From Escherichia coli (GTDB taxonomy: Bacteria; Pseudomonadota; Gammaproteobacteria; Enterobacterales; Enterobacteriaceae): 64,000 nucleotides of DNA. The stretch is from the NCBI RefSeq assembly GCF_009931435.1, contig NZ_CP043414.1. One strand, given 5' to 3'. Numbering within the stretch: position 1 is the first letter of the stretch; the number at the start of each line of letters is the position of its first letter. The position numbers were made by a program, and so were the translations under genes. Positions 6,083-31,110 of the stretch are shown here, in pieces. The notes beneath the pieces were generated by a model. It did no database searches. It saw only the letters and a list, made by a program, of their open reading frames with translations, and was not told the DNA's origin.

Positions 6083-6997
6083 ATGAGTCGCTCACAAAAT
6101 TTACGCCACAATGTGATTAACCAGGTCATTGATGATATGGCACGAGGTCATATCCCTTCGCCACTTCCATCGCAAAGTGCGCTGGCAGAAATGTACAACA
6201 TCAGCCGCACCACAGTGCGTCATATTCTCAGCCACTTACGCGAATGCGGCGTCTTGACGCAGGTTGGAAACGACTATGTTATTGCGCGTAAACCTGACCA
6301 TGATGACGGTTTCGCCTGTACTACCGCTTCAATGAGTGAACAAAACAAAGTGTTTGAGCAGGCTTTTTTTACGATGATAAACCAGCGCCAGTTACGCCCA
6401 GGAGAAACTTTTTCTGAACTGCAACTGGCTCGGGCCGCGGGTGTCAGCCCGGTTGTAGTAAGAGAATATCTTTTAAAATTCGGTCGTTATAATCTTATTC
6501 AGAGCGAAAAGCGCGGCCAGTGGAGCATGAAGCAATTCGATCAATCCTACGCCGAGCAGCTGTTTGAGCTACGCGAAATGCTCGAAACTCATTCACTTCA
6601 GCACTTTCTCAACCTGCCTGATCATGATCCCCGCTGGCTGCAGGCGAAAACCATGCTCGAACGTCATCGACTACTGCGTGACAACATCGGCAATAGCTTT
6701 CGCATGTTCTCGCAACTTGACAGAGATTTTCACTCCTTACTGCTTTCAGCTGCCGATAATATCTTTTTTGATCAATCGCTTGAGATCATCTCAGTCATCT
6801 TTCATTTTCACTATCAATGGGACGAAAGCGATCTTAAACAGCGCAATATCATTGCCGTCGATGAGCATATGACCATTCTCAGCGCTCTGATTTGCCGCAG
6901 TGACCTGGATGCCACCCTTGCGCTCCGTAACCATTTGAATTCAGCTAAACAATCAATGATTCGATCCATTAATGAGAACACGCGTTATGCTCATTAA
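6083..6997 (+). CDS. lgoR: GntR-family transcriptional regulator LgoR
   Basis: 304 aa; N-terminal winged-HTH region (SQSALAEMYNISRTTVRHIL); divergent from lgoD, upstream of lgoT. Confidence 0.8.
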   Translation: MSRSQNLRHNVINQVIDDMARGHIPSPLPSQSALAEMYNISRTTVRHILSHLRECGVLTQVGNDYVIARKPDHDDGFACTTASMSEQNKVFEQAFFTMINQRQLRPGETFSELQLARAAGVSPVVVREYLLKFGRYNLIQSEKRGQWSMKQFDQSYAEQLFELREMLETHSLQHFLNLPDHDPRWLQAKTMLERHRLLRDNIGNSFRMFSQLDRDFHSLLLSAADNIFFDQSLEIISVIFHFHYQWDESDLKQRNIIAVDEHMTILSALICRSDLDATLALRNHLNSAKQSMIRSINENTRYAH

Positions 6998-7211
6998 GTA
7001 CGGATTAAAAACAGCAAACTATTAGCGGGTGCACGGTTTTATCAAAAGATAAATACCGGAAAATTCCCGCTTACCTATGCTCACAATCAGTCGACTAAAA
7101 ATGTTTTTGTGAGCGGTAGTAAAGTCCTAAAACTTTCACCTGCCGTTAATGTCAACCTTGCGTAATGCACAATTACGTAAACAATTAAAATTATAAATAC
7201 AGGAGTCCGGC

Positions 7212-8573
7212 GTGGAAAAAGAAAATATCACCCTCGATCCGCGTTCTTCATTTACTCCATCTTCGTCGGCAGATATTCCCGTGCCACCAGATGGATTAGT
7301 TCAACGCAGTACCCGAATTAAACGCATTCAAACCACCGCCATGTTGTTATTATTTTTTGCGGCGGTAATCAATTATCTCGACCGCAGTTCACTGTCGGTA
7401 GCAAATTTAACGATTCGTGAAGAATTGGGATTAAGTGCCACCGAAATCGGCGCTTTGCTCTCCGTGTTTTCACTCGCTTACGGGATTGCGCAACTTCCTT
7501 GCGGCCCACTATTGGATCGTAAAGGCCCGCGCCTGATGCTGGGACTGGGGATGTTCTTCTGGTCACTGTTCCAGGCAATGTCTGGCATGGTGCACAGCTT
7601 TACGCAGTTCGTGTTGGTGCGTATCGGTATGGGAATTGGTGAAGCGCCGATGAACCCATGCGGTGTAAAAGTCATTAACGACTGGTTCAACATCAAAGAG
7701 CGCGGACGCCCGATGGGCTTCTTCAACGCAGCTTCTACCATTGGCGTTGCCGTAAGCCCACCGATTCTGGCGGCGATGATGCTGGTGATGGGCTGGCGCG
7801 GGATGTTTATTACCATTGGTGTACTGGGGATTTTTCTCGCCATTGGCTGGTATATGCTCTATCGCAACCGCGAGCACGTAGAACTGACTGCCGTTGAACA
7901 AGCTTATCTCAATGCAGGTAGCGTCAATGCCCGCCGTGATCCGCTCAGTTTTGCCGAATGGCGCAGCCTGTTCCGTAACCGCACAATGTGGGGAATGATG
8001 CTCGGATTCAGTGGCATCAACTACACTGCGTGGCTGTATCTGGCCTGGCTTCCTGGTTACCTGCAAACAGCCTATAACCTGGATTTAAAAAGCACAGGAT
8101 TGATGGCGGCTATCCCTTTCCTGTTTGGGGCTGCCGGGATGCTGGTCAACGGTTACGTTACCGACTGGCTGGTCAAAGGGGGAATGGCTCCGATTAAAAG
8201 CCGTAAGATCTGCATTATTGCCGGGATGTTCTGTTCTGCCGCCTTTACGCTGGTCGTACCGCAAGCGACAACATCCATGACAGCGGTTCTGCTGATTGGC
8301 ATGGCACTGTTCTGCATTCACTTTGCCGGAACATCCTGCTGGGGATTGATCCACGTCGCTGTCGCTTCTCGCATGACTGCATCGGTGGGCAGTATCCAGA
8401 ACTTTGCCAGCTTCATCTGCGCTTCTTTCGCGCCGATCATTACTGGTTTTATTGTCGATACCACCCACTCATTCCGTCTGGCGCTAATCATCTGCGGTTG
8501 CGTCACCGCGGCGGGTGCACTGGCATACATCTTCCTGGTTCGTCAGCCGATCAACGACCCACGTAAAGATTAA
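7212..8573 (+). CDS. lgoT: L-galactonate:H+ symporter, MFS family
   Basis: 453 aa, multiple transmembrane helices; GTG start; synteny. Confidence 0.8.
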   Translation: MEKENITLDPRSSFTPSSSADIPVPPDGLVQRSTRIKRIQTTAMLLLFFAAVINYLDRSSLSVANLTIREELGLSATEIGALLSVFSLAYGIAQLPCGPLLDRKGPRLMLGLGMFFWSLFQAMSGMVHSFTQFVLVRIGMGIGEAPMNPCGVKVINDWFNIKERGRPMGFFNAASTIGVAVSPPILAAMMLVMGWRGMFITIGVLGIFLAIGWYMLYRNREHVELTAVEQAYLNAGSVNARRDPLSFAEWRSLFRNRTMWGMMLGFSGINYTAWLYLAWLPGYLQTAYNLDLKSTGLMAAIPFLFGAAGMLVNGYVTDWLVKGGMAPIKSRKICIIAGMFCSAAFTLVVPQATTSMTAVLLIGMALFCIHFAGTSCWGLIHVAVASRMTASVGSIQNFASFICASFAPIITGFIVDTTHSFRLALIICGCVTAAGALAYIFLVRQPINDPRKD

Positions 8574-16214: not shown

Positions 16215-16442
16215 TGTGATCTCAATCACATATCCACCCGACGAATAATTCTTGCCCAACCGCTCACCGCCATTCCTGACCGCTTACGTCCCAAATATAA
16301 CCACTCAGTTATTTACCTTACTTTACGCGCGCGTAACTCTGGCAACATCACTGCAGGATAGCGGTCAATTTACCTCCTCAAACGCAACGCAAACCTAGAA
16401 CGGCTTCGGCCAACTATTAATCAATACATGCCAGGTTTTACT

Positions 16443-18593
16443 ATGGATACTAAAAAGATATTCAAGCACATACCCTGGGTGATTCTTGGAATCATCGGTG
16501 CATTCTGCCTCGCGGTAGTTGCATTACGTCGGGGGGAGCACGTCAGCGCCCTGTGGATCGTGGTCGCCTCTGTGTCGGTGTATCTGGTGGCTTATCGCTA
16601 CTACAGTCTGTACATCGCCCAGAAGGTGATGAAACTCGACCCCACGCGCGCGACGCCTGCGGTTATTAACAATGACGGTCTGAACTATGTTCCGACCAAC
16701 CGTTACGTGTTGTTTGGTCACCACTTCGCCGCTATCGCCGGTGCGGGTCCGCTGGTTGGTCCGGTTCTCGCCGCGCAGATGGGTTACCTGCCTGGCACAC
16801 TGTGGCTGCTGGCGGGGGTAGTGCTGGCCGGTGCGGTACAGGACTTTATGGTGCTGTTTATCTCTTCTCGCCGTAACGGCGCATCTCTCGGTGAGATGAT
16901 CAAAGAAGAGATGGGGCCAGTACCGGGGACTATCGCGCTGTTTGGCTGTTTCTTAATCATGATCATCATCCTCGCCGTTCTGGCGCTGATTGTGGTTAAA
17001 GCCCTGGCCGAAAGTCCGTGGGGGGTCTTCACCGTTTGCTCAACCGTACCGATTGCGCTGTTCATGGGTATCTACATGCGCTTTATCCGTCCGGGGCGTG
17101 TAGGTGAAGTCTCTGTTATTGGTATCGTGCTGCTGGTTGCCTCTATCTACTTCGGTGGCGTGATTGCTCACGATCCGTACTGGGGTCCGGCACTGACCTT
17201 TAAAGACACCACAATTACCTTCGCACTGATTGGCTATGCGTTTGTTTCCGCACTGCTGCCGGTGTGGCTGATCCTCGCACCGCGCGACTATCTGGCAACC
17301 TTCCTGAAAATCGGCGTTATCGTCGGCCTGGCGCTGGGTATCGTGGTGCTGAACCCGGAACTGAAAATGCCTGCGATGACCCAGTACATTGACGGTACTG
17401 GCCCGTTGTGGAAAGGCGCTCTGTTCCCGTTCCTGTTCATCACCATCGCCTGTGGTGCGGTATCTGGCTTCCACGCGCTGATCTCTTCCGGTACAACGCC
17501 GAAATTGCTGGCTAACGAAACCGACGCGCGTTTCATTGGCTACGGCGCAATGCTGATGGAGTCCTTCGTGGCGATTATGGCGCTGGTTGCTGCGTCCATC
17601 ATCGAACCGGGTCTTTACTTCGCGATGAATACCCCGCCTGCGGGCCTTGGCATCACCATGCCTAACCTGCATGAAATGGGTGGCGAGAACGCGCCGATCA
17701 TCATGGCGCAGCTGAAAGACGTTACCGCACACGCGGCAGCGACTGTCAGCTCCTGGGGCTTCGTGATTTCGCCAGAGCAGATCCTGCAAACCGCGAAAGA
17801 CATTGGTGAGCCTTCTGTCCTGAACCGTGCAGGTGGTGCGCCGACGCTGGCGGTAGGTATCGCTCACGTGTTCCACAAAGTGCTGCCGATGGCTGACATG
17901 GGCTTCTGGTATCACTTCGGTATTCTGTTCGAAGCCCTGTTCATCCTGACCGCGCTGGATGCGGGTACCCGTTCTGGCCGCTTTATGCTGCAAGACCTGC
18001 TGGGTAACTTCATCCCGTTCCTGAAAAAAACCGACTCTCTGGTTGCCGGCATCATCGGTACTGCGGGCTGTGTGGGTCTGTGGGGCTACCTGCTGTATCA
18101 GGGCGTGGTCGATCCGCTGGGCGGCGTTAAGAGCCTGTGGCCGCTGTTCGGTATCTCCAACCAGATGCTGGCAGCCGTAGCGCTGGTACTGGGCACCGTT
18201 GTGCTGATTAAGATGAAGCGCACCCAATACATCTGGGTGACTGTTGTTCCGGCTGTATGGCTGCTTATCTGCACCACCTGGGCGCTGGGCCTGAAACTGT
18301 TCAGCACCAACCCGCAGATGGAAGGCTTCTTCTACATGGCAAGCCAGTACAAAGAGAAGATTGCTAACGGTACTGACCTGACGGCACAGCAGATTGCCAA
18401 CATGAACCACATCGTTGTGAACAACTACACCAACGCGGGTCTGAGTATTCTGTTCCTGATTGTGGTGTACAGCATCATCTTCTACGGTTTCAAAACCTGG
18501 CTGAAGGTGCGTAACAGCGACAAACGTACTGACAAAGAAACTCCGTACGTTCCAATCCCGGAAGGCGGCGTGAAGATCTCTTCGCACCACTAA
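16443..18593 (+). CDS. btsT: Pyruvate/H+ symporter BtsT (CstA family)
   Basis: Start chosen at MDTKKIFKHIPWVILG (716 aa); large polytopic CstA-like protein. Confidence 0.9.
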   Translation: MDTKKIFKHIPWVILGIIGAFCLAVVALRRGEHVSALWIVVASVSVYLVAYRYYSLYIAQKVMKLDPTRATPAVINNDGLNYVPTNRYVLFGHHFAAIAGAGPLVGPVLAAQMGYLPGTLWLLAGVVLAGAVQDFMVLFISSRRNGASLGEMIKEEMGPVPGTIALFGCFLIMIIILAVLALIVVKALAESPWGVFTVCSTVPIALFMGIYMRFIRPGRVGEVSVIGIVLLVASIYFGGVIAHDPYWGPALTFKDTTITFALIGYAFVSALLPVWLILAPRDYLATFLKIGVIVGLALGIVVLNPELKMPAMTQYIDGTGPLWKGALFPFLFITIACGAVSGFHALISSGTTPKLLANETDARFIGYGAMLMESFVAIMALVAASIIEPGLYFAMNTPPAGLGITMPNLHEMGGENAPIIMAQLKDVTAHAAATVSSWGFVISPEQILQTAKDIGEPSVLNRAGGAPTLAVGIAHVFHKVLPMADMGFWYHFGILFEALFILTALDAGTRSGRFMLQDLLGNFIPFLKKTDSLVAGIIGTAGCVGLWGYLLYQGVVDPLGGVKSLWPLFGISNQMLAAVALVLGTVVLIKMKRTQYIWVTVVPAVWLLICTTWALGLKLFSTNPQMEGFFYMASQYKEKIANGTDLTAQQIANMNHIVVNNYTNAGLSILFLIVVYSIIFYGFKTWLKVRNSDKRTDKETPYVPIPEGGVKISSHH

Positions 18594-18601
18594 CCGTGTT
18601 T

Positions 18602-18629
18602 AGCCCCGCTTCGGCGGGGCTTTGTTCTT
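18602..18629 (+). terminator. Hairpin agccccgc-ttcg-gcggggct followed by T-rich tract, between btsT and yjiX
   Basis: GC stem, tetraloop and ttgttctt read directly. Confidence 0.5.
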
Positions 18630-18642
18630 ATCAGAGTGAACT

Positions 18643-18846
18643 ATGTTTGGTAACTTAGGACAGGCAAAAAAATATCTCGGCCAGGCGGCGAAGATGTTGA
18701 TTGGCATTCCAGACTACGACAACTACGTCGAGCATATGAAGACCAACCATCCCGACAAGCCGTACATGAGCTATGAAGAATTCTTCCGCGAACGCCAGAA
18801 CGCGCGCTACGGCGGCGATGGTAAAGGCGGTATGCGCTGTTGTTAA
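18643..18846 (+). CDS. yjiX: Small protein YjiX (DUF466)
   Basis: 67-aa ORF directly downstream of the cstA-family gene, the conserved pairing. Confidence 0.8.
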
Positions 18847-18856
18847 TGGAGAGAGC

Positions 18857-19813
18857 ATGAACCCGATTGCAGTTACCCTACTCACCGGTTTTTTAGGCGC
18901 AGGCAAAACCACCCTGCTGCGCCATATTCTTAATGAACAGCACGGCTACAAGATTGCCGTGATTGAAAACGAATTCGGCGAAGTCTCCGTTGATGATCAA
19001 CTGATTGGCGACCGCGCCACGCAGATCAAAACGCTGACCAACGGCTGCATCTGTTGTTCGCGCTCCAACGAGCTGGAGGACGCGCTACTCGACCTGCTGG
19101 ATAATCTCGACAAGGGCAATATTCAGTTCGATCGTCTGGTCATTGAATGCACCGGCATGGCCGATCCCGGCCCGATTATTCAGACCTTTTTCTCCCATGA
19201 GATTTTATGCCAGCGTTACCTGCTGGACGGCGTGATTGCGCTGGTGGATGCGGTACATGCCGATGAGCAGATGAACCAGTTCACCATCGCCCAGTCACAG
19301 GTTGGCTACGCCGACCGCATTCTGCTGACCAAAACCGACGTCGCAGGCGAAGCAGAAAAACTGCGTGAACGCCTGGCACGCATCAACGCCCGCGCACCGG
19401 TCTACACCGTCACCCACGGCGACATCGATCTGGGCCTGCTGTTCAACACCAACGGTTTTATGCTGGAAGAAAACGTCGTCAGCACCAAACCGCGTTTCCA
19501 CTTTATCGCGGATAAACAAAACGATATTTCGTCGATTGTGGTAGAACTGGATTACCCGGTAGATATCAGCGAAGTTTCCCGCGTGATGGAAAACCTGCTG
19601 CTGGAGTCGGCGGATAAACTGCTGCGTTACAAAGGGATGCTATGGATTGACGGCGAACCAAATCGCCTGCTGTTCCAGGGCGTCCAGCGCCTCTACAGCG
19701 CCGACTGGGACCGCCCGTGGGGCGATGAAAAACCGCATAGCACGATGGTGTTTATCGGGATTCAGCTGCCGGAGGAAGAGATTCGGGCTGCGTTTGCGGG
19801 GTTGAGGAAGTAA
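18857..19813 (+). CDS. yjiA: CobW/P47K-family GTPase YjiA
   Basis: Start at MNPIAVTLLTGFLGAGKTTLL (P-loop); 318 aa; ORF-track start at 18773 overlaps yjiX and is rejected. Confidence 0.9.
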   Translation: MNPIAVTLLTGFLGAGKTTLLRHILNEQHGYKIAVIENEFGEVSVDDQLIGDRATQIKTLTNGCICCSRSNELEDALLDLLDNLDKGNIQFDRLVIECTGMADPGPIIQTFFSHEILCQRYLLDGVIALVDAVHADEQMNQFTIAQSQVGYADRILLTKTDVAGEAEKLRERLARINARAPVYTVTHGDIDLGLLFNTNGFMLEENVVSTKPRFHFIADKQNDISSIVVELDYPVDISEVSRVMENLLLESADKLLRYKGMLWIDGEPNRLLFQGVQRLYSADWDRPWGDEKPHSTMVFIGIQLPEEEIRAAFAGLRK

Positions 19814-19827
19814 AATTTCACATTTTT

Positions 19828-19863
19828 CTTAAGCCGGAAGATATATATACCCCACCGGCTTAA
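19828..19863. terminator. Inverted repeat cttaagccgg / ccggcttaag between convergent yjiA and the 249-aa gene
   Basis: 10-bp perfect inverted repeat with 16-nt AT-rich spacer; candidate bidirectional terminator. Confidence 0.35.
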
Positions 19864-19878
19864 GAAAGTGCAATTCTC

Positions 19879-20628
19879 TTATGAAACATCACGAAATACA
19901 CAGGTAAGTTCTTTAGGACTTGCTTTCCATATATGGTCAAAGCCACTCGACAGCATGACTTCTATTTTTCCTTCCGGACTTTCAATTAGTAAATAGCGAT
20001 CATGGCAGTTTGTATATTTGGGATTTGTAGTGATTTGCACACTCCATTCAGGATGGATACAATGAACAAAATTACTATTTATTTTACTTCCGTTTTGGAC
20101 TGCAGCGACACCTACTGCGATTTCTGAAAATTCAATAACAAGCTCTTTTCTAGGTAGTACGGAATGAAATAAGCTGCATGTATTCTCCCAATTCTGTGCA
20201 AAGTAATTATCGCATATAATTACTTTTTTTGCATTGCAACATAGCATTTCCAGATACTTTTTTAAATATATTCTATTATCTGTAGGGCTTAATGTAACGG
20301 TAACTTGATTATTAACCATACCTTTTTTATAATGTACAAAGGGAAGTGATAAATTATCATTCTCAGTAAGGATTATTTTCAACAACGATTTAGATGCTAA
20401 AGTAACAAGATCATCATCACTTTCAGGCTGACTTGCTAACATAGATAAATATTGTCGATATTCTAACTCCGGCATCTTCAATCCTAAATTTCTTGCCTCA
20501 ATCCATTGCCTTTTGTTAGTTAAATAAGGTAGTACTAGTTTTTTATGTAATCTCTTCACCTTATTCTTATCATCCATATTTTCATATGCAACTAATAAAG
20601 ATGTATCAAGAACCATTTGATAAGACAT
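19879..20628 (-). CDS. Hypothetical 249-aa protein, third gene of the DUF262-ATPase operon (candidate effector)
   Basis: ATG at 20628 lies 4 nt after the ATPase stop with GAGG RBS inside the upstream gene; AT-rich; no motif I can assign. Confidence 0.6.
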   Translation of the reverse strand: MSYQMVLDTSLLVAYENMDDKNKVKRLHKKLVLPYLTNKRQWIEARNLGLKMPELEYRQYLSMLASQPESDDDLVTLASKSLLKIILTENDNLSLPFVHYKKGMVNNQVTVTLSPTDNRIYLKKYLEMLCCNAKKVIICDNYFAQNWENTCSLFHSVLPRKELVIEFSEIAVGVAAVQNGSKINSNFVHCIHPEWSVQITTNPKYTNCHDRYLLIESPEGKIEVMLSSGFDHIWKASPKELTCVFRDVS

Positions 20629-20632
20629 TTCT

Positions 20633-21682
20633 TTACCTCATCTTCATCAAATCATCTAAGGTTGCATCAAAAAAACCTAAAGGGAATCCCGTAACATTCT
20701 CTTGCAGATCGGTAAATTTCCCACCTTCATTAACTCTCATCGAGATAAAATCTTTATCCACATCAGGTTTATAATGTACAGAAATATCCTCAGAAGTTAT
20801 AACATCTTCATAAACCAAATACGCAAGTTTATTGATTAAATGTTCACAATGCGTTTCTACAATAATCTGGATACCCTTACTTGCTACAAATGCTAAAAAA
20901 ATTGCCAAATGAGACTGCGCTTTCGGATGCAATTGAATTTCGGGATTTTCTAGCAAAATAAGATCGCCTTTTTTTGCCATCAAACAAATAATCAAAACCT
21001 TTGCAATATAACTCATCCCAGCCCCAAGATTAAGAGGAGAAACATTTCCTTCAAGCTCTTTTAAGGTAAAAGCGACCTTAATCTGGTCACCAACTTTTTC
21101 AGTAACTAATTCAGACGTCGTTCCTGTAATCAGTTTCAACCAATAAGATAATTGATATGCAAGTGTTGTAGATTCGTGAACTTTCACCAGATATTCAGGT
21201 ACTGGCAAATGTTTCATTTTATCAAATGTTGAAAACAAGAATTCTCCTGCAACACCTACTCGACGTTCTGCGGTGGGCACAAATTCTTGTGCCCCCAAGC
21301 GGTTGGCATTCAGATAGAGCAACTCAGGTTCACTACCAGGCACTCTTGGCTCGTATTGATATCCCAGACGACTATCAATTTCGATATTTTCTGAGTTGAG
21401 CGTTAACGAATGAGAATTTTTTTCTGTATCCTGGACTGTTATAACAATAGATTTTGCGTTATTTTTTTTATTTCTAATAACAGGAAAATCAGCTAGAAAT
21501 CGGATAACTTCTTCCATACTATACTGATTAACAGAAGCGCTATTTTTAATTAGTAACATCAATGCCTGAATAACGCTGGATTTACCAGAAGAGTTAGTTC
21601 CAGTTAAAATGGTCAGTGGTGATAACACCAGACTTGTTGAGCCTAAACTTTTAAATCCTTGAATGTTAATATTTGTAAGCAT
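20633..21682 (-). CDS. P-loop ATPase (ABC/AAA_21-like), second gene of the DUF262-ATPase operon
   Basis: Walker A GTNSSGKSS near N-terminus; Walker B-like DLILLENPEIQLHP; start overlaps upstream gene by 17 nt. Confidence 0.75.
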   Translation of the reverse strand: MLTNINIQGFKSLGSTSLVLSPLTILTGTNSSGKSSVIQALMLLIKNSASVNQYSMEEVIRFLADFPVIRNKKNNAKSIVITVQDTEKNSHSLTLNSENIEIDSRLGYQYEPRVPGSEPELLYLNANRLGAQEFVPTAERRVGVAGEFLFSTFDKMKHLPVPEYLVKVHESTTLAYQLSYWLKLITGTTSELVTEKVGDQIKVAFTLKELEGNVSPLNLGAGMSYIAKVLIICLMAKKGDLILLENPEIQLHPKAQSHLAIFLAFVASKGIQIIVETHCEHLINKLAYLVYEDVITSEDISVHYKPDVDKDFISMRVNEGGKFTDLQENVTGFPLGFFDATLDDLMKMR

Positions 21683-22796
21683 TTTTAATCCTTTCCATTA
21701 TTTCCTTCGCAAAATCAAAACGCATATTTACATATTGTGTTGTATCAATTGCACCAGAAAAAATACCAATCTCATCAAAATTATACTTGTATTGTTCAAT
21801 AAGCTGTTTTAATTCAATATTTTTTGATAAAAATTCAAAACTTATCTGACTGAATACCATAACTAACACTTCGAATAATCCCATATTCACTGGTCGCCTT
21901 TTAGCACCTGATTTTGTTGAAAATCTAAATGCTTCTGAACCCAACGCTTTATAGACATTAGTCATACCAGTTATACAAGCATCTTCAACTTCTTCCAGTA
22001 ACTCATCATCAGCTTTTGTATTAATGAATTTCATCGCAGATGCTAAAAAAGCATCAATATCAGACCTAAATTCAACACCTGGCATTTGATTTGTTACAAG
22101 CAAATAAAATCCTACGAACCGCAAAACCAGATATCTGTCTCGCATACGCTCAGATTTTACGCCATTACCTGTTGCAAGCCTGAAAGACTCGTGTTCAGCG
22201 AGATCCTTAATTAACTTTGTGGCCTTGCCTTGATAAAGAGCATGCCGCATTTCCTGTTTATTTAGATTAATACCACTTCGATTTACACGCTCAAAAATAT
22301 TAAATTTCACATATTCAGGTGTTGGGGGTTGAATCACATAAGAATGTAACTGGCAATCTTCAAGCTTTGCTTGTAATAATGGAGGAATATCAGAAAATTT
22401 TTTTCCTCTCAAGTCAGGCAACATAGATAAATCAGTTAAAGAAAATTCATTGTTAACATAGCGTTTCAATGCAGATATTCGTTGTTTGCCATCAATGATT
22501 TGCCTGACACCATTTTCATCCTCAAAAAGATAAATTAATGGAATAGGAATCCCCATTAAAATAGATTCAATTAATTCTGACTGGTGTTTTCTATCCCAGA
22601 CAAGTTTACGCTGAAAATCTGGAGCAAGAACCAGTTGCCCACGAGCTTCGCGACGGAGTAATTCGAAAACACTGGATTGCTCTTTTGCAATTCGAACCTC
22701 AGTATCTGTCCCCATTTGATGCGGATGAGATGTTAACTCAAGCTCTTCTTGATCTTCGAGTTCAATGCTGTCGTTTTCTACATCCGCATTACTCAT
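21666..22796 (-). CDS. DUF262 (ParB/Srx-like) domain protein, first gene of the three-gene operon
   Basis: DUF262 motifs in order: PDFQRKLVW, IIDGKQR (DGQQR-type), NIFERVNRSGINLNKQE; acidic N-terminus; ATG at 22796. Confidence 0.8.
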   Translation of the reverse strand: MSNADVENDSIELEDQEELELTSHPHQMGTDTEVRIAKEQSSVFELLRREARGQLVLAPDFQRKLVWDRKHQSELIESILMGIPIPLIYLFEDENGVRQIIDGKQRISALKRYVNNEFSLTDLSMLPDLRGKKFSDIPPLLQAKLEDCQLHSYVIQPPTPEYVKFNIFERVNRSGINLNKQEMRHALYQGKATKLIKDLAEHESFRLATGNGVKSERMRDRYLVLRFVGFYLLVTNQMPGVEFRSDIDAFLASAMKFINTKADDELLEEVEDACITGMTNVYKALGSEAFRFSTKSGAKRRPVNMGLFEVLVMVFSQISFEFLSKNIELKQLIEQYKYNFDEIGIFSGAIDTTQYVNMRFDFAKEIMERIKNAYKY

Positions 22797-23036
22797 GGTA
22801 AAATTACCTTTAAAAATTTATCGAATTATTTATTCATAAAAATAGGGCGCTGAATCAAAATTTCAGCCCCTTAATCAACATGAATTATACCCTAACTTCC
22901 TTCTTGACTGCGACCTTCACTGCACCATTATGCGAGTTATCTCCAGAACATAATGCTCTCATACCGCCCTAAGTCATAGCCAGGCTATTGATTTTATGTA
23001 CAATCAGAATCGTCCTGATAAAAGCGAGAATACCCC

Positions 23037-25469
23037 ATGGCGGAACTGAACCTAAGTAACCTGACGGAAGCAGACATCATTACCAAATGCGTTATGCCAG
23101 CCATTCTCAATGCAGGCTGGGACAACACAACGCAAATCAGACAGGAGGTCAAACTCCGGGACGGTAAAGTCATCGTACGTGGTAAAGTTGCGGCACGCAG
23201 AACGGTAAAATCTGCTGACATCGTGCTGTATCACAAACCAGGCATTCCCTTAGCCGTGATTGAAGCAAAAGCCAACAAACATGAAATTGGCAAAGGGATG
23301 CAACAGGGCATTGAATATGCGCGCCTGCTGGACGTTCCTTTTGTTTTTGCCACCAACGGGGATGGCTTTATCTTCCGCGATGCCACCGCAGCCGAAGGTG
23401 AATGCCTTGAAAAGCAAATAACGCTGGATGACTTCCCCTCCCCCGCTGAACTCTGGCAAAAATTCTGCCTCTGGAAAGGATACACACAAGCTCAGCTTCC
23501 GGTGATTACTCAGGACTATTACGACGATGGCAGCGGTAAATCGCCACGTTATTACCAGCTTCAGGCAATCAACAAAACCATTGAAGCCGTCTCCAACGGG
23601 CAAAACCGCGTTCTGTTGGTCATGGCGACCGGAACAGGGAAAACCTATACCGCATTCCAGATCATCTGGCGCCTGTGGAAATCAAAAAATAAAAAACGCA
23701 TTCTGTTCCTTGCCGATCGCAACATTCTGGTCGACCAAACCAAAAATAATGATTTCCAGCCATTTGGTACGGCAATGACCAAAGTCAGCGGACGCACCAT
23801 TGATCCCGCTTATGAAATTCACCTCGCGCTCTATCAGGCTATAACTGGCCCGGAGGAAGACCAAAAAGCGTTTAAACAAGTCGCACCAGATTTCTTCGAT
23901 CTGATAGTCATCGACGAATGCCATCGCGGCAGCGCATCCGAAGACAGCGCCTGGCGAGAGATCCTTGATTATTTCAGTTCCGCCACCCAAATTGGCTTAA
24001 CCGCCACGCCAAAAGAGACGCATGAAGTCTCCAGCACGGATTACTTCGGCGATCCGGTTTACGTCTACTCGCTAAAAGAAGGGATCGAAGACGGCTTCCT
24101 CGCCCCTTATAAAGTTGTCCGTGTTGATATTGATGTTGATCTGCAAGGCTGGCGCCCAACCAAAGGGCAAACTGACTTAAACGGCGAAGTGATCGACGAT
24201 CGTATCTATAACCAGAAAGATTTCGATCGCACGATGGTAATCGACGAACGCACAGAACTGGTTGCCAGAACCATTACCGACTACCTCAAGCGCACCAATC
24301 CGATGGATAAAACCATCGTCTTCTGTAACGACATCGATCATGCAGAACGTATGCGCCGCGCCCTGGTTAATCTCAACTCGGAGCAGGTGAAAAAGAACGA
24401 CAAATACGTCATGAAAATCACCGGCGATGATGAAATTGGCAAAGCTCAGTTGGATAACTTCATCAACCCGAAAAAACCGTACCCGGTTATCGCGACCACT
24501 TCAGAGCTGATGACCACCGGTGTGGATGCTAAAACCTGCAAACTGGTAGTACTGGACCAGAACATCCAGTCGATGACCAAATTCAAGCAGATTATCGGTC
24601 GTGGTACACGCATCGACGAACGTTACGGCAAACTCTGGTTTACCATCCTCGACTTTAAAAAAGCCACCGAACTGTTTGCCGATGAGCGTTTCGATGGCAT
24701 TCCCGAAAAAGTCATGGATACCACACCAGAGGATATCACCGATCCAGAATCTGATTTTGAAGAGAAACTCGAAGAAATCAGCGAACATGACGACGAACAG
24801 GTAACGGGCGTTGATGAACCGCCTGCGCCACCATACCAGGTTACCGATACCGATGATGTCGGCCCACTTCCGGAAGAAGACGAGAAGAAAATCCGCAAGT
24901 TTCACGTCAACGGTGTCGCGGTGGGCGTTATTGCGCAGCGTGTTCAGTATTACGATGCCGACGGTAAACTGGTTACCGAATCTTTTAAAGATTACACCCG
25001 CAAAACACTGCTCAAAGAATATGCCTCGCTGGATGACTTTACCCGCAAGTGGCAGGACGCCGATCGCAAAGAAGCGATCATTCACGAGCTGGAGCAACAG
25101 GGGATCATCTGGGAAGTACTGGCAGAAGAAGTCGGTAAAGATCTCGACCCGTTCGACATGCTTTGCCACGTAGTGTATGGTCAGCCGCCGTTAACCCGCA
25201 AAGAGCGCGCCGAGAACGTGCGCAAGCGGAACTACTTCACAAAATACTCTGAAGCAGCGCAAGCCGTGCTCGATAATCTGCTGGATAAATACGCCGATGC
25301 GGGCGTACAGGAGATCGAAAGTATTCAGGTGCTGAAACTTAAACCATTCGACAGCATGGGCACTTTACCGGAGATTATTAAAACCGGATTTGGCGACCGT
25401 AACGGGTATAATCAGGCGCTCAGCGAGCTGGAAAACGAAATCTACCAATTACCGCCCCGCTCTGCTTAA
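23037..25469 (+). CDS. hsdR: Type I restriction enzyme R subunit (HsdR), non-K-12 family (likely IB-like)
   Basis: 810 aa; N-terminal HsdR nuclease region; helicase motif [11 protein letters not shown] and motif [10 protein letters not shown]; hsdR-hsdM-hsdS order. Confidence 0.9.
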
Positions 25470-25499
25470 CAACTCTCTTTTGCGCCTTCTGCAACCATC

Positions 25500-27005
25500 A
25501 TGTTGCAGAAGGCCTTGTTTTTCATGGAATACAACATGTCTATCAGCTCAGTAATCAAATCATTACAAGATATTATGCGCAAAGATGCCGGTGTGGATGG
25601 CGATGCGCAGCGTCTCGGTCAGCTCTCCTGGCTGCTGTTTTTGAAAATCTTCGATGCCCAGGAAGAGGCGCTGGAACTGGAGCAGGATAACTATCAATAT
25701 CCGATCCCACAGCGTTATTTGTGGCGCAGTTGGGCCGCCAACGCGCAGGGCATTACCGGTGATTCCCTGCTGGAATTCGTTAATGATGATCTGTTCCCGG
25801 CGTTGAAAAACCTCACTGCGCCTATCGATAAAAACCCACGCGGCTACGTGGTGAAGCAGGCGTTCAGCGATGCCTATAACTATATGAAAAACGGTACGCT
25901 ACTGCGTCAGGTGATCAACAAGCTGAACGAAATTGACTTTACCAGCGCCAGCGAACGCCATCTGTTTGGTGATATTTACGAACAGATCCTTAAAGATCTG
26001 CAATCTGCGGGCAATGCTGGCGAATTCTATACTCCACGCGCCGTCACTCGCTTTATGGTGGATCGCGTTGATCCGAAACTCGGCGAATCCATTATGGACC
26101 CGGCCTGCGGTACGGGCGGTTTTCTTGCCTGCGCATTTGATCATGTAAAGAACAAATACGTGAAGAGCGTCGCCGATCATCAGACTCTGCAACAACAGAT
26201 CCACGGTGTCGAGAAAAAACAGCTTCCGCACCTGCTGGCGACCACCAATATGCTGCTGCACGGCATTGAAGTACCGGTACAAATTCGTCACGACAACACC
26301 CTGAATAAACCGCTTTCCTCCTGGGATGAGCAACTGGATGTGATTGTTACCAACCCGCCATTTGGTGGCACGGAAGAAGACGGTATTGAGAAGAACTTTC
26401 CGGCAGAGATGCAAACCCGCGAAACGGCGGATCTGTTCCTGCAACTGATTGTGGAAGTACTGGCGAAAAACGGTCGCGCGGCGGTGGTATTGCCGGATGG
26501 CACACTATTTGGCGAAGGCGTTAAAACCAAAATCAAAAAACTGCTTACCGAAGAGTGCAACCTGCATACCATCGTGCGTTTACCGAATGGGGTGTTTAAC
26601 CCCTATACCGGCATTAAAACCAACCTGTTGTTCTTTACCAAAGGTCAGCCAACCAAAGAGATTTGGTTCTATGAGCATCCGTATCCGGCGGGCGTGAAAA
26701 ATTACAGTAAAACCAAGCCGATGAAGTTTGAAGAGTTTCAGGCGGAGATCGACTGGTGGGGGAACGAGGCCGATGGTTTTGCCAGCCGCGTCGAGAATGA
26801 GCAGGCGTGGAAAGTCAGCATTGATGACGTGATTGCGCGTAACTTCAATCTGGATATTAAAAACCCACATCAGGCGGAAACCGTTAGCCATGATCCGGAC
26901 GAGCTGTTAGCGCAGTATGCAAAGCAGCAGGCGGAGATCCAGACGCTGCGTAATCAACTGCGCGATATTCTTGGCGCTGCGCTGTCTGGCAAGGAGGTTA
27001 ACTGA
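25500..27005 (+). CDS. hsdM: Type I restriction-modification N6-adenine methyltransferase subunit (HsdM)
   Basis: AdoMet motif DPACGTGGFL and catalytic NPPFGG; alternative starts at 25524 or 25536; stop overlaps hsdS start by 1 nt. Confidence 0.9.
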   Translation: MLQKALFFMEYNMSISSVIKSLQDIMRKDAGVDGDAQRLGQLSWLLFLKIFDAQEEALELEQDNYQYPIPQRYLWRSWAANAQGITGDSLLEFVNDDLFPALKNLTAPIDKNPRGYVVKQAFSDAYNYMKNGTLLRQVINKLNEIDFTSASERHLFGDIYEQILKDLQSAGNAGEFYTPRAVTRFMVDRVDPKLGESIMDPACGTGGFLACAFDHVKNKYVKSVADHQTLQQQIHGVEKKQLPHLLATTNMLLHGIEVPVQIRHDNTLNKPLSSWDEQLDVIVTNPPFGGTEEDGIEKNFPAEMQTRETADLFLQLIVEVLAKNGRAAVVLPDGTLFGEGVKTKIKKLLTEECNLHTIVRLPNGVFNPYTGIKTNLLFFTKGQPTKEIWFYEHPYPAGVKNYSKTKPMKFEEFQAEIDWWGNEADGFASRVENEQAWKVSIDDVIARNFNLDIKNPHQAETVSHDPDELLAQYAKQQAEIQTLRNQLRDILGAALSGKEVN

Positions 27006-28753
27006 TGAGTGTGGAAAAGCTGATCGTTGATCATATGGAAACCTGGACCTCGGCGTTGCAAACCCGTTCCACCGCCGGGCGCGGCAGTTCCGGAAAAATT
27101 GATTTATATGGCATTAAGAAATTACGTGAGCTGATTCTGGAACTGGCTGTGCGCGGTAAACTGGTGCCGCAGGATCCGAATGATGAACCGGCGTCGGAGC
27201 TGCTGAAGCGTAATGAAGAACGGAAAAAAGAATTAGCGCGCAATAATGGTATGAAAACCACAGCAAGCACTAATATCCATGGAAATGAATATTATATCGA
27301 TACCCCCGAAAAGTGGTCATGGATAAGACTTGGTAATTTAGCTAAATTCATCGATTACCGAGGGAAAACACCACATAAAAAAGAAAATGGTATAAGGCTT
27401 ATAACAGCAAAAAATATCAGAAAGGGCTGTATTGATCTCAATCCAGAAGAATTCATATCTGAAGAAGATTACATATCATGGATGACAAGAGGCTTTCCTA
27501 AATGTGGTGATATTTTATTCACAACTGAAGCACCACTGGGGAATGCAGCGATTATTGATTTAGACGGAAAGTTCGCTCTTGCTCAACGTTCTATCTGTTT
27601 TCAATGGCATACTCCAGAGATAAGCCCTTTTATGCTTATTCAAATCCTGGCGATCCCCTTCCAGTCACAACTAAGTGACAAATCTACAGGCATGACCGCA
27701 ACAGGAATAAAAGCGTCTAAGTTAAAAGAGATCCCTGTTATTTTACCACCTTACCAAGAACAAATACGTATTGTATCCAAAGTACAGGAGTTCATGTCCC
27801 TATGTGACCAACTGGAACAGCAATCCCTGACCACTCTGGACGCACATCAGCAACTGGTTGAAACCCTGTTGGGAACGCTTACAGACAGCCAAAACGCCGA
27901 GGAACTGGCTGAAAACTGGGCGCGTATTAGCGAGCATTTCGACACCCTATTTACCACCGAAGCCAGCGTGGATGCGTTAAAACAGACCATTCTGCAACTG
28001 GCCGTAATGGGCAAACTTGTGCCGCATGATCCGAATGACGAACCAGCCTCTGAACTGCTCAAACGAATTGCGCAGGAAAAAGCTCAACTGGTGAAAGAAG
28101 GAAAAATAAAAAAACAAAAACCGTTGCCGCCGATTAGCGATGAGGAAAAACCTTTTGAACTGCCGGAAGGGTGGGAATGGATTAGACTAGGAAATATTGG
28201 TGAAGTTAAAGGGGGCGGAACCCCAAGTAAAAACAATCCTGATTTTTGGAAAGGTAATATTCCATGGGTTTCACCAAAGGATATGAAGGTTAATTACATC
28301 TCCAAAAGTCAACTAAATATTTCAAAAGAGGCTGTATTGGAGAGTTCAGTACATCTAATTCCTGAAAATAGTCTTATTTTTGTTGTCCGAGGCATGATTT
28401 TAGCCCATACATTCCCCGTAGCAATAACAAAAAAAGAAGTCACTATTAATCAAGATATGAAAGCCATATCAACTAATCAATTAAATACTGATTTTTTAAT
28501 TTACTTACTTAAAGCAAACGAGACTCGAGTAATATGCTTAGTTGACCGCTCCTCTCATGGCACATGTAAACTTGTTTCAGATAAACTTTTCAATTTGGTT
28601 TTACCGTTGCCTCCATTAGAAGAACAATTTCGTATTACAGAACGAATAAATATGCTATTAGCTTATTGTGATAGATTGAAAAATTATATAAATCTAAAAA
28701 AACAAACCCAACTGCACCTTGCAGATGCACTCACTGACGCGGCGATAAACTAA
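27005..28753 (+). CDS. hsdS: Type I restriction-modification specificity subunit (HsdS) with two target-recognition domains
   Basis: 582 aa; duplicated conserved segment LAVRGKLVPQDPNDEPASELLKR / LAVMGKLVPHDPNDEPASELLKR flanking AT-rich variable TRDs. Confidence 0.88.
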   Translation: MSVEKLIVDHMETWTSALQTRSTAGRGSSGKIDLYGIKKLRELILELAVRGKLVPQDPNDEPASELLKRNEERKKELARNNGMKTTASTNIHGNEYYIDTPEKWSWIRLGNLAKFIDYRGKTPHKKENGIRLITAKNIRKGCIDLNPEEFISEEDYISWMTRGFPKCGDILFTTEAPLGNAAIIDLDGKFALAQRSICFQWHTPEISPFMLIQILAIPFQSQLSDKSTGMTATGIKASKLKEIPVILPPYQEQIRIVSKVQEFMSLCDQLEQQSLTTLDAHQQLVETLLGTLTDSQNAEELAENWARISEHFDTLFTTEASVDALKQTILQLAVMGKLVPHDPNDEPASELLKRIAQEKAQLVKEGKIKKQKPLPPISDEEKPFELPEGWEWIRLGNIGEVKGGGTPSKNNPDFWKGNIPWVSPKDMKVNYISKSQLNISKEAVLESSVHLIPENSLIFVVRGMILAHTFPVAITKKEVTINQDMKAISTNQLNTDFLIYLLKANETRVICLVDRSSHGTCKLVSDKLFNLVLPLPPLEEQFRITERINMLLAYCDRLKNYINLKKQTQLHLADALTDAAIN

Positions 28754-28777
28754 TTTTCTCGCCCTCATAAAACCAAT

Positions 28778-28803
28778 AAAGCGGCTAAATAGCCGCTTTA
28801 TTC
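28778..28803 (+). terminator. Rho-independent terminator after hsdS
   Basis: aaagcggct-aaat-agccgcttt hairpin followed by AT-rich tract. Confidence 0.5.
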
Positions 28804-28878
28804 ACATCACCAAAAATTATATTTTACGCTAATTTTCATCTTATTTTCATTAATTTTTAGCTGGACTTTCCCCATATT

Positions 28879-28898
28879 TACTGATGATATGTCCAGGT
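28879..28898. promoter_or_regulatory. Candidate LexA operator (SOS box) upstream of symE
   Basis: tactgatgatatgtccaggt contains CTG-N10-CAG spacing about 75 nt upstream of the symE ATG. Confidence 0.45.
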
Positions 28899-28899
28899 A

Positions 28900-28980
28900 T
28901 TTAGCGCGGTGCGAATGTGCGCCAACACACCCGCACCGCTCATCACAATCCCTATTTCACGAGAATAGTAATCATGACTG
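28900..28980 (-). ncRNA. symR: Putative SymR antisense sRNA (antitoxin of SymE), approximate coordinates
   Basis: Inferred from established symE/SymR arrangement (cis-antisense RNA over the symE 5' UTR and start codon); ends not determinable by eye. Confidence 0.3.
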
Positions 28981-29315
28981 ACACGCATTCTATTGCACAA
29001 CCGTTCGAAGCAGAAGTCTCCCCGGCAAATAACCGTCAATTAACCGTGAGTTATGCGAGCCGCTACCCGGATTACAGCCGTATTCCCGCCATCACTCTGA
29101 AAGGTCAGTGGCTGGAAACCGCCGGTTTTACCACCGGCACGGCGGTAGATGTCAAAGTGATGGAAGGCTGTATTGTCCTCACCGCCCAACCACCCGCCGC
29201 CGAGGAGAGCGAACTGATGCAGTCACTGCGCCAGGTGTGCAAACTGTCAGCGCGTAAACAGAAGCAGGTGCAGGAGTTTATTGGGGTGATTGCCGGTAAA
29301 CAGAAAGTCGCCTGA
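28974..29315 (+). CDS. symE: SOS-induced type I toxin SymE
   Basis: Translation from ATG 28974 ([34 protein letters not shown]..., 113 aa) matches SymE; ORF-track start 28917 rejected. Confidence 0.9.
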
Positions 29316-29361: not shown

Positions 29362-31110
29362 TTATACCAACGCGCTCTCCATCTGTTTTTCAAATGCCTG
29401 ACGGATTAATCCCATAATGTAAGGAAGTTGTGCGAGGTCGCTGAAACCAATTTCTACATCGCCATTGCCCCAGCGCCCAACATTTGTCACATCTTTGGCA
29501 ATACCTTTCGGATCGACCAGTTCATGAAACTGCATATTAAGCGACAATCGCAGTCGGCTTTTTTGCGGCACAACATCAACAAAATTCGTTTCCGCTTTAA
29601 ACGCAATATAGAGCTTCAATACTTCCTGCGTGATCCCTGCGTCCAGGCGCAAAACTTCATCGCTAAGATGATCGAATAACACCCGGCTATGCGAACCATC
29701 AGCAAGAAAAGGATAATCACTCAGGCTGTAACTGGTTTTGTTTTCCGGCTGCCCCCGATAAACAGCTAAAACCTCTTCAGGAAGAGAAGGCGCTTGCCAG
29801 ACCTGAACCGCGAGATCGGCCAGACGATCGGCTCGGGCGTGAATGGCAGCTTCATCCCATTTTTCGCACTGTCCAAGACCGATATTCAAATAAAGCGGGC
29901 TATGCTTAAAGCCGTCTTCAATATCGCGTTTTTCCGCGAAAGGTCTGTCACTGTAGCGGGAGTTATAGCGCGTTAAAGTGAGATTCCCCAACGTATGCAA
30001 CAATTCTTTATGAATACGCTGCCAGTCGCTTCCCAGCTCTTCGCGCCATTTAGCCGACAAATTTTCGTTCTGCGGCATAATGTGCTCAATCGTAAACTCT
30101 TCCACGCGCTCTCTGCGTTTATTGTTTTCCAGTCGTCGTAACCAGTAACTGCGACTGCGGAAGTTATAGAGATCGCGAACTTTTAATTCCCGTTTAAATT
30201 CATCATCGTTGGGGAAACGACGATATGAAGGTAGATTCAGAAAATGTACCTGAATACTTTCCAGATAATTTTCTTTATTAATAACTTTATAAAAAGTGGC
30301 AAACGTCTTGTTAAGAGAATTTGTTGGAATCGCACATACTGCACGGCGGAAAACATAAGATTCAATTAAACGAATTATGCTCAGGAAATCTTCACGAGAC
30401 AAAACGCCATTTTTATAGTCATGATAAAGCGCCAGTAAGAAAGGATACGCCACATCGACTTTTAACTCGCGCAAATCCTGAAAAGCCGTAGCAAGCGATT
30501 TGTCACTTTCTTTTCCCAATGCCATTGCACAGTAATACTCCGCGTAGATGTGAATATCTTCAACCAGCCGATCTACGCCTTTTTCAGCAACACTCTGGCT
30601 ACGGGCATGGAGTTTAAAAGCCTCATAGACTTCATCTGTCCGAGGGATCTCCCCCGTTTTTACCGTCAGATAATGACGCATAAAACTGTCAAAATATTCG
30701 CTGTAACCTTGCTGACCAAAGGCGACTTCCATGGGTCGCCAGTGATCTTCATACAACCGGGTTTGATGCTCTGGTTCGAGACCCATCAGAATAAAATTGC
30801 GCACCAGATCGGCCTGACTTAACGCCTTACCGGTGGAGTTCATACTTTCAAAAATCAGTTGCGGATTATCCTGACCACGATTAAGCGCCACATCGACAAT
30901 TAATAACTTTGCTAACCCACGACATAAGGGGATCAAGTCATCACCGAGTTTGGCAATTTGTTCATCAAAGAAAGTAAAGTTTTCCATTATTCGATGGGAA
31001 TAGTTTTCTGGCATTGGTCTTTGTTTTATTAACGCCAGCAAACTGTCTTTATCAGTCTCGGTAAGCAGTAATTTAAATCCTTTCTCGCCGGACTCATAAG
31101 GATTGAGCAA
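29362..31110 (-). CDS. GmrSD-family-like protein (DUF262 C-terminal portion plus DUF1524/HNH), probably 5'-truncated; candidate type IV restriction remnant
   Basis: C-terminal region has EHIMPQNENLSAKWREELG (DUF1524 His-Me type); N-terminal region has only the distal DUF262 motif (IFESMNSTGKALSQADLVRNF); first in-frame codon is TTG with a stop 8 codons upstream. Confidence 0.6.
   Translation of the reverse strand: MLNPYESGEKGFKLLLTETDKDSLLALIKQRPMPENYSHRIMENFTFFDEQIAKLGDDLIPLCRGLAKLLIVDVALNRGQDNPQLIFESMNSTGKALSQADLVRNFILMGLEPEHQTRLYEDHWRPMEVAFGQQGYSEYFDSFMRHYLTVKTGEIPRTDEVYEAFKLHARSQSVAEKGVDRLVEDIHIYAEYYCAMALGKESDKSLATAFQDLRELKVDVAYPFLLALYHDYKNGVLSREDFLSIIRLIESYVFRRAVCAIPTNSLNKTFATFYKVINKENYLESIQVHFLNLPSYRRFPNDDEFKRELKVRDLYNFRSRSYWLRRLENNKRRERVEEFTIEHIMPQNENLSAKWREELGSDWQRIHKELLHTLGNLTLTRYNSRYSDRPFAEKRDIEDGFKHSPLYLNIGLGQCEKWDEAAIHARADRLADLAVQVWQAPSLPEEVLAVYRGQPENKTSYSLSDYPFLADGSHSRVLFDHLSDEVLRLDAGITQEVLKLYIAFKAETNFVDVVPQKSRLRLSLNMQFHELVDPKGIAKDVTNVGRWGNGDVEIGFSDLAQLPYIMGLIRQAFEKQMESALV

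Follow-up and report, generated by a model that had tools for sequence, protein, structure and literature searches.

We analysed a 64,000-nucleotide (nt) stretch of Escherichia coli DNA (RefSeq assembly GCF_009931435.1, contig NZ_CP043414.1; hereafter the window), in which three intact open reading frames (ORFs) of 376, 349 and 249 aa lie on the minus strand between yjiA and hsdR (Table 1; the third ORF spans 19879..20628). The second ORF starts 17 nt inside the first, and the third starts 4 nt after the stop codon of the second. A preliminary description of the locus had given the same coordinates, overlap and gap, all of which we reproduced exactly, and had called the block AT-rich relative to its flanks, which agrees with a G+C content of 0.347 in the operon; the whole window has 0.489, btsT-yjiA 0.551 and hsdRMS 0.471. 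In the public annotation, the three products are a 'DUF262 domain-containing protein', an 'AAA family ATPase' and a 'hypothetical protein', with no system name, and NCBIfam returned no match for the first and third genes and only sub-threshold ATPase matches for the second. Our analysis establishes the identity, the architecture and the intact catalytic motifs of this operon, which is very probably a complete Type I Menshen system (nsnA-nsnB-nsnC) with an NsnC of the inPIN + PB-PLD1 kind, carried as a horizontally acquired 3.1-kb cassette in the yjiA|hsdR slot.

Assignment to Menshen

Menshen consists of the proteins NsnABC and, as related in PMC12065111, was found by Millman et al. (2022); the same paper credits a homolog from Solibacillus silvestris with protection against T2, T4, T6 and Fado. 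Mutation or deletion of its DUF262 gene leads to loss of resistance, according to PMC10952713. More recently, 1,997 Menshen loci were catalogued and the features that define a member were given (Li et al., NAR 2025; PMC12065111). Menshen is thereby a catalogued system of which one homolog has been shown to be phage-protective, and its molecular mechanism is a bioinformatic model; a literature search found no newer mechanistic paper on Menshen, and no solved structure of a Menshen component was detectable by sequence search.

PADLOC profiles assign all three proteins, from end to end and in the expected order, to NsnA (E = 2e-110, 368 bits, residues 8-371 on profile positions 21-383 of 385), NsnB (E = 1.5e-78, residues 1-348 on positions 1-342 of 345) and NsnC (E = 2.2e-71, positions 1-241 of 242, with no second family). 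These profiles are specific, in that a neighbouring GmrSD-like ORF of the DUF262 family has no NsnA match. The suspicion of a Menshen-like system voiced in the preliminary description is borne out by these scores, and its proposal of an uncharacterised defence system or new combination has to be given up, since PADLOC places the trio in a catalogued system with exactly this architecture. That the operon is instead an uncatalogued system which merely shares DUF262 and ABC-ATPase modules with known systems is highly improbable: the public annotation without a system name and the lack of any NCBIfam or Pfam match for the third gene would suit such a view, but the full-length, very strong profile matches of all three proteins contradict it, as does NsnC, whose fold and motif both fit a published effector class. 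Because all three genes match Menshen profiles in the exact architecture, the locus is an already catalogued system rather than a new one, and there is no architectural difference from known Menshen.

The sensor NsnA and the ATPase NsnB

The hallmarks of NsnA are the DUF262 motifs QRxxxW, DGxQR and FxxxN, followed by a C-terminal (ParBDB) region (PMC12065111). In the protein encoded here, we found QRKLVW at residue 62 (within DFQRKLVW), DGKQR at 102 and FERVN(RSG) at 168, and the Pfam family GmrSD_N covers residues 45-188 (E = 4.4e-24), while the ParBDB region is predicted from the coverage of the C-terminal half by the PADLOC profile. This agrees with the preliminary description, which had reported the full motif set and no DUF1524 partner: Pfam gives GmrSD_N/DUF262 alone for this protein, and none of the three has a Pfam match to DUF1524. 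DUF262 begins at about residue 45, after ~44 residues of acidic, low-complexity sequence; no Pfam or PADLOC domain was found in this N-terminal segment, nor was the extra globular sensor domain of Type II. As NsnA has no additional N-terminal domain before DUF262, we class the system as Type I.

NsnB had been described as an ABC/AAA_21-like ATPase, and the Pfam matches to AAA_15, AAA_21 and SMC_N as well as the Walker A motif GTNSSGKS at residue 28 and the Walker B motif LILL-EN (LILLENPE) at 241 support this assignment. In NsnB proteins, the Walker B motif has EN for DE, and GxG takes the place of SGG (PMC12065111); the EN of the Walker B motif and a GAG at residue 220 agree with this published, NsnB-specific pattern. 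The next-best PADLOC profile was AriA (1.7e-27), with further matches to Old (1e-15) and GajA (5e-14), and the PDB entry 6p74 is homologous.

The effector NsnC

For the third protein, the preliminary description could assign no domain. This holds for Pfam, which gave no match even at E <= 10, but not for PADLOC, which identifies the protein as NsnC and leads to the effector class inPIN + PB-PLD1. As published, NsnC combines an inactive PIN-like N-terminal domain, which has no D-E-D-D tetrad, with one of 15 effector C-terminal domains, and the PB-PLD1 class among these has a conserved acidic residue, an HDR motif and the same fold relatives, at similar scores, as those described below (PMC12065111). 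An exhaustive HMMER search yielded 137 clusters of NsnC homologs, nearly all of 230-260 aa. In an alignment of 99 homologs, H209, D210, R211 and G229 are invariant (99/99), and D140 (98%), Y212 (98%) and S228 (96%) are strongly conserved, giving the signature H-x-R-x4-[D/E] followed by a conserved S-G. By sequence, this signature is an HKD-like motif with Arg for Lys and is present once per chain.

Compared with solved proteins, the NsnC alignment profile had a single match, the MIT_C domain of human MITD1 (4a5z, E = 0.027), in an alignment that spans the D-x-Y strand and the HDR motif and covers profile positions 127-227. Among the fold relatives, those with two scores were MIT_C (2ymb; 10.9 and 11.4), NucT (6ehi; 8.2 and 8.9) and Tdp1 (8.1 and 8.7); by the first score alone, the PLD nuclease domain of SauUSI reached 9.7, Zucchini 8.4, BfiI 7.3, Nuc 6.5 and VapC/PIN toxins 5.2-6.2. 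The MITD1 match lies at profile positions 127-227, for which reason we place the PLD-fold matches in the C-terminal half; those to PIN proteins we place in the N-terminal half. The preliminary description had proposed to look for a cryptic nuclease, NADase or membrane fold in the 249-aa protein; the Foldseek search agrees with a PIN-like N-terminal half and a PLD-type C-terminal half, and the nuclease function is predicted. The D-E-D-D tetrad of the PIN-like half is not conserved in the homolog alignment, as described for inPIN. We had also considered, prompted by its 'VLDTS' start, that this half might be an active RNase; the lack of conservation in the acidic tetrad led us to reject the idea. 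Taken together, NsnC falls into the published effector class inPIN + PB-PLD1, and its C-terminal half is a putative nuclease.

The chromosomal slot and its neighbourhood

The cassette has exact limits: homology to O157:H7 and K-12 runs up to the yjiA stop codon (19813) and no farther, and O157 sequence is homologous again from 22963, 74 bp before hsdR. The flanks are E. coli sequence (~99% identity) and are found in 5,425 of 5,426 complete genomes. In K-12 MG1655, the gene order is yjiA - mrr - hsdR and mrr has the same relative orientation as the Menshen operon, so that the term 'mrr slot' used in the preliminary description is accurate; O157:H7 has a split DUF262 + HNH (GmrSD-like) gene in the same position. 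The slot belongs to the immigration control region, where exchange of cargo by recombination in conserved flanks has been documented (PMC12707154). Menshen has already been listed among the systems of E. coli defence hotspots (PMC10121019), while the census of the yjiA|hsdR slot in PMC12707154, as far as its Table 3 goes, has only Type I, Mrr, McrBC and GmrSD and makes no mention of Menshen there. Measured against that table, our finding adds Menshen to the known cargo of the yjiA|hsdR slot.

Table 1. Features of the Menshen cassette (positions in the window)
Feature	Coordinates	Strand	Basis
Whole Menshen cassette; stands between yjiA and hsdR in place of mrr (K-12) or a split GmrSD-like gene (O157:H7)	19814..22962	-	homology breakpoints, GC
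nsnA, predicted sensor: ParB-like DUF262 NTPase with C-terminal NsnA-type domain	21666..22796	-	PADLOC, Pfam, motifs
nsnB, ABC/OLD-type ATPase, predicted signal transducer	20633..21682	-	PADLOC, Pfam, motifs
nsnC N-terminal half (~residues 1-118): PIN-like fold without acidic tetrad (inPIN), predicted docking/target-recognition module	20275..20628	-	
nsnC C-terminal half (~residues 119-249 and stop codon): PLD-superfamily PB-PLD1 effector, predicted phosphodiesterase/nuclease	19879..20274	-	
Codons H209-D210-R211 of NsnC, HKD-like (H-x-R) catalytic signature	19996..20004	-	homolog alignment
Cassette-specific leader, putative nsnA promoter region	22797..22962	-	sequence, fold
Perfect 13-bp inverted repeat, TTTCTTAAGCCGG - 17 nt - CCGGCTTAAGAAA	19825..19867	.	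sequence, fold

The nature of the slot bears on whether the operon might be a Type IV (modification-dependent) enzyme of the GmrSD/BrxU/SspE kind, or PD-T4-2, in which DUF262 drives a fused or adjacent HNH nuclease. Both mrr in K-12 and the split GmrSD-like gene in O157:H7 would be in keeping with such an enzyme, as would the GmrSD_N match of NsnA and its weaker PADLOC matches to PD-T4-2_A (6e-32), SspE and REase_II. We nevertheless regard this as very unlikely, because none of the three proteins has a DUF1524/HNH domain, NsnA scores 368 bits against its own profile but 109 bits against PD-T4-2_A, and the second and third genes match no component of PD-T4-2 or GmrSD.

Next to the cassette lies a complete hsdR-hsdM-hsdS set of the EcoAI family (Type IB; 23037..29315), in which hsdR has a full-length match to the REase_I profile and the G+C content of hsdS falls to 0.37-0.45, as expected of swapped target-recognition domains. 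Beyond hsdRMS, we found symE with its antisense RNA symR (Rfam RF01809, 28903..28979, 88.9 bits) and, beside symE, the GmrSD-like ORF mentioned above (29362..31110, minus strand). This ORF matches the PADLOC profile 'Orf5' only at positions 104-542 of 543 (E = 6e-174), and yjiS (31174..31353) starts 64 bp upstream of it; given the partial match and the proximity of yjiS, we take it to be a 5'-truncated remnant that is missing the DUF262 nucleotide-binding core. Its C-terminal 100 residues (476-573) separately match the candidate family PDC-S18, and its homolog in O157:H7 is split in two. Farther along, the plus strand contains a very long ORF of 1,746 aa (44419..49659).

Distribution and origin of the cassette

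Searches with megablast and sensitive blastn found no copy of the operon in 5,426 complete RefSeq E. coli genomes. Look-ups of the exact proteins returned ~240-280 public contigs, almost all from E. coli, together with 628 collection blocks, and two of the carriers are complete GenBank chromosomes. An initial reading of the cassette as nearly absent from E. coli was dropped in view of these contigs, since the occurrence of exact proteins on many of them means that it is rare or unsampled in the RefSeq set and not absent.

In all of the distinct contexts inspected (8/8), the cassette occupies the yjiA|hsdR slot with hsdR of the EcoAI family, and at least three backgrounds can be told apart beyond btsT. 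Across the eight E. coli carriers, it differs by 0-10 mismatches per 3,149 bp, compared with 31-77 mismatches per 3,386 bp for the btsT-yjiA flank (16428..19813) and an intermediate 1-24 mismatches per 2,507 bp for hsdR. The near identity of the cassette beside a diverged btsT-yjiA flank and its low G+C content point to recent horizontal spread by recombination in the flanks, in which the cassette, often together with hsdR, appears to have moved between lineages. The horizontal acquisition proposed in the preliminary description is thus supported. In one of the eight carriers (CP027520.1, a complete E. coli chromosome; gene at 6946..7962 of locus L018), a 1-bp indel shortens NsnB to 338 aa, and several other database entries contain NsnA or NsnB fragments; some carriers may therefore be inactivated, or these differences may be assembly errors.

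Outside E. coli, a copy of the trio with 67% identity is found on conjugative IncFIB/IncHI1B plasmids of Klebsiella pneumoniae, where it lies beside a retron and retains the 17-nt nsnA/nsnB overlap. Protein identity between the two versions declines along the operon from 70% for NsnA to 58% for NsnB and 51% for NsnC, which fits the fast diversification reported for NsnC. On the K. pneumoniae plasmid pINF192.3 (locus L002, 1..10892), Menshen shares a small defence island with a retron, made up of a St85-family reverse transcriptase and an AAA ATPase, and with a second gene cluster for an AAA ATPase. In addition, homologs of NsnC with 24-32% identity directly follow an AAA_15/AAA_21 ATPase gene in five metagenomic loci (L004, L005 and L007-L009), and in L007-L009 a 373-aa GmrSD_N protein precedes the ATPase. 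The trio is therefore conserved as a unit across distant taxa, which the preliminary description had left to be established.

We give next to no credence to a role outside defence, either as a ParB/SMC-like DNA-handling module that might, for example, partition or maintain a mobile element, or as a toxin-antitoxin-like addiction cassette. Although NsnA belongs to the ParB superfamily, NsnB resembles SMC/RecF-type ABC ATPases and a related copy is found on conjugative plasmids, the cassette described here is chromosomal, has no integrase, replication or partition-site features and is embedded between restriction systems. Moreover, the plasmid copy lies beside a retron in a defence island and not beside the replicon, and phage protection has been shown for one Menshen homolog.

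Leader, tail and integrity of the operon

The preliminary description had placed the promoter of the operon in 22797..23036, but a consensus scan of this interval found no minus-strand sigma-70 promoter upstream of nsnA. The leader contains a perfect TATAAT (22884..22889, minus strand) with a poor -35 element, and ~50 nt before the start codon a terminator-like hairpin is followed by a T-run (22849..22867). This hairpin could be an attenuator or could be due to chance, the latter because the promoter and terminator scan found sites to be no more numerous than in shuffled controls. At the other end of the cassette, the 13-bp inverted repeat, which has an AT-rich loop, lies between the convergent nsnC and yjiA stop codons and folds at -28.7 kcal/mol in context. 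It is kept in 8/8 E. coli carriers, and the Klebsiella copy has a different hairpin in its place. The repeat is possibly a transcription-stopping stem-loop; it is not a canonical terminator, since the stem lacks a following T-run on both strands. No Rfam RNA family was found within the cassette.

These elements bear on the question of whether the operon is a decayed or silent remnant, Menshen by descent but without a defence function in this strain. The lack of a consensus promoter and the hairpin in the leader could be taken as signs of silencing, the shortened NsnB of CP027520.1 indicates that some carriers have altered genes, and the truncated GmrSD-like gene nearby illustrates that decay occurs in this island. 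We consider a remnant unlikely all the same, as none of the three ORFs is shortened against its profile, the catalytic motifs are all intact and the exact proteins recur on ~240-280 contigs.

Discussion

Our analyses support the view that this cassette encodes a complete Menshen system, and how it might act likely follows the published model. In this model, NsnA, with its ParB-like DUF262 NTPase and DNA-binding C-terminal domain, would sense invading phage DNA, possibly by reading modified DNA as related DUF262 sensors do. Its signal would alter the nucleotide state of an oligomer of the ABC ATPase NsnB, a predicted GajA-like tetramer that would hold NsnC through contacts of the NsnB C-terminal tail with the PIN-like domain, and binding or hydrolysis of ATP by NsnB would then activate or release NsnC. 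The HDR (HKD-like) site of NsnC would hydrolyse phosphodiester bonds of nucleic acid, so that phage replication would be stopped directly or by abortion of the infected cell. Because each chain has a single HKD-like motif, as in Nuc, NucT, Zucchini and BfiI, an active site probably requires the pairing of two NsnC C-terminal domains, and control of this pairing is a plausible natural on-switch. The substrate could be DNA or RNA or, with less likelihood, lipid, to which the kinship with MIT_C would point; for Menshen in general, Li et al. favour RNA (PMC12065111).

Several observations weigh against this interpretation of the operon as a functional Menshen system. The closest structural relative of the NsnC effector domain, MIT_C of MITD1, is a membrane-binding module for which, to our knowledge, no catalysis has been demonstrated. 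Upstream of nsnA, the consensus scan gave no sigma-70 promoter. The DUF3696 tail of NsnB is a weak match (Pfam E = 2.2 only, residues 329-347); the NsnB profile reaches the C-terminus, and a Campylobacter homolog carries a DUF3696 annotation. In addition, the published model leaves the signalling step from NsnA to NsnB undefined, and experimental validation is confined to one homolog with another effector, the S. silvestris system, whose NsnC is of the inPIN11 + PB-BECR1 class and RNase-like (PMC12065111). The PLD-type effector of the E. coli cassette differs from this validated effector, and its function is a prediction.

It is possible, though we hold the idea only tentatively and think it doubtful, that Menshen with a PB-PLD1 effector is a three-component, modification-sensing DNA restriction enzyme that replaces the function of Mrr or GmrSD in the slot, and not an RNA-targeting abortive system. 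NsnA would then read modified phage DNA, NsnB would couple NTP hydrolysis to this recognition, and two NsnC PLD half-sites would dimerise to cut DNA in the manner of BfiI and SauUSI. As a rarer alternative, the MIT_C-like domain may attack membrane phospholipid. Either of these, if true, would provide the first mechanism for Menshen, in its native E. coli host.

Since routine use of PADLOC or DefenseFinder would suffice to identify the operon as Menshen, the value of our observation as a discovery is small. Its practical value is modest: a Menshen system with a PLD-type effector is native to E. coli, compact (3.1 kb) and exactly delimited, and genetics as well as challenge with T-even and other phages are easy in this host, which makes the cassette a convenient model for work on the Menshen mechanism.

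Finally, Menshen shares parts of its design with several known systems. Like the single-chain DUF262-DUF1524 enzymes GmrSD, BrxU and SspE, it uses a DUF262 NTPase as sensor, with the same three motifs and in the same island; unlike them, it has no DUF1524/HNH domain and relies on a separate PLD-like effector, with an ABC ATPase interposed. The ATPases of PARIS (AriAB), Septu (PtuAB), Gabija (GajAB) and OLD are homologous to NsnB, and the published Menshen model likewise has an ATPase oligomer that holds and gates a nuclease effector. The effectors of those systems are of the Toprim or HNH type, whereas that of Menshen is PLD-like, and Menshen adds a DUF262 sensor protein. NsnC itself is best compared with MIT_C and with PLD nucleases that have a single HKD motif, such as Nuc, NucT, Zucchini, BfiI, NgoAVII and the N-terminal domain of SauUSI. 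It differs from these nucleases in having Arg for the canonical Lys (HDR, shared with MIT_C), a longer hairpin between the His motif and S-G, a fused PIN-like module and a catalytic activity that is predicted only.

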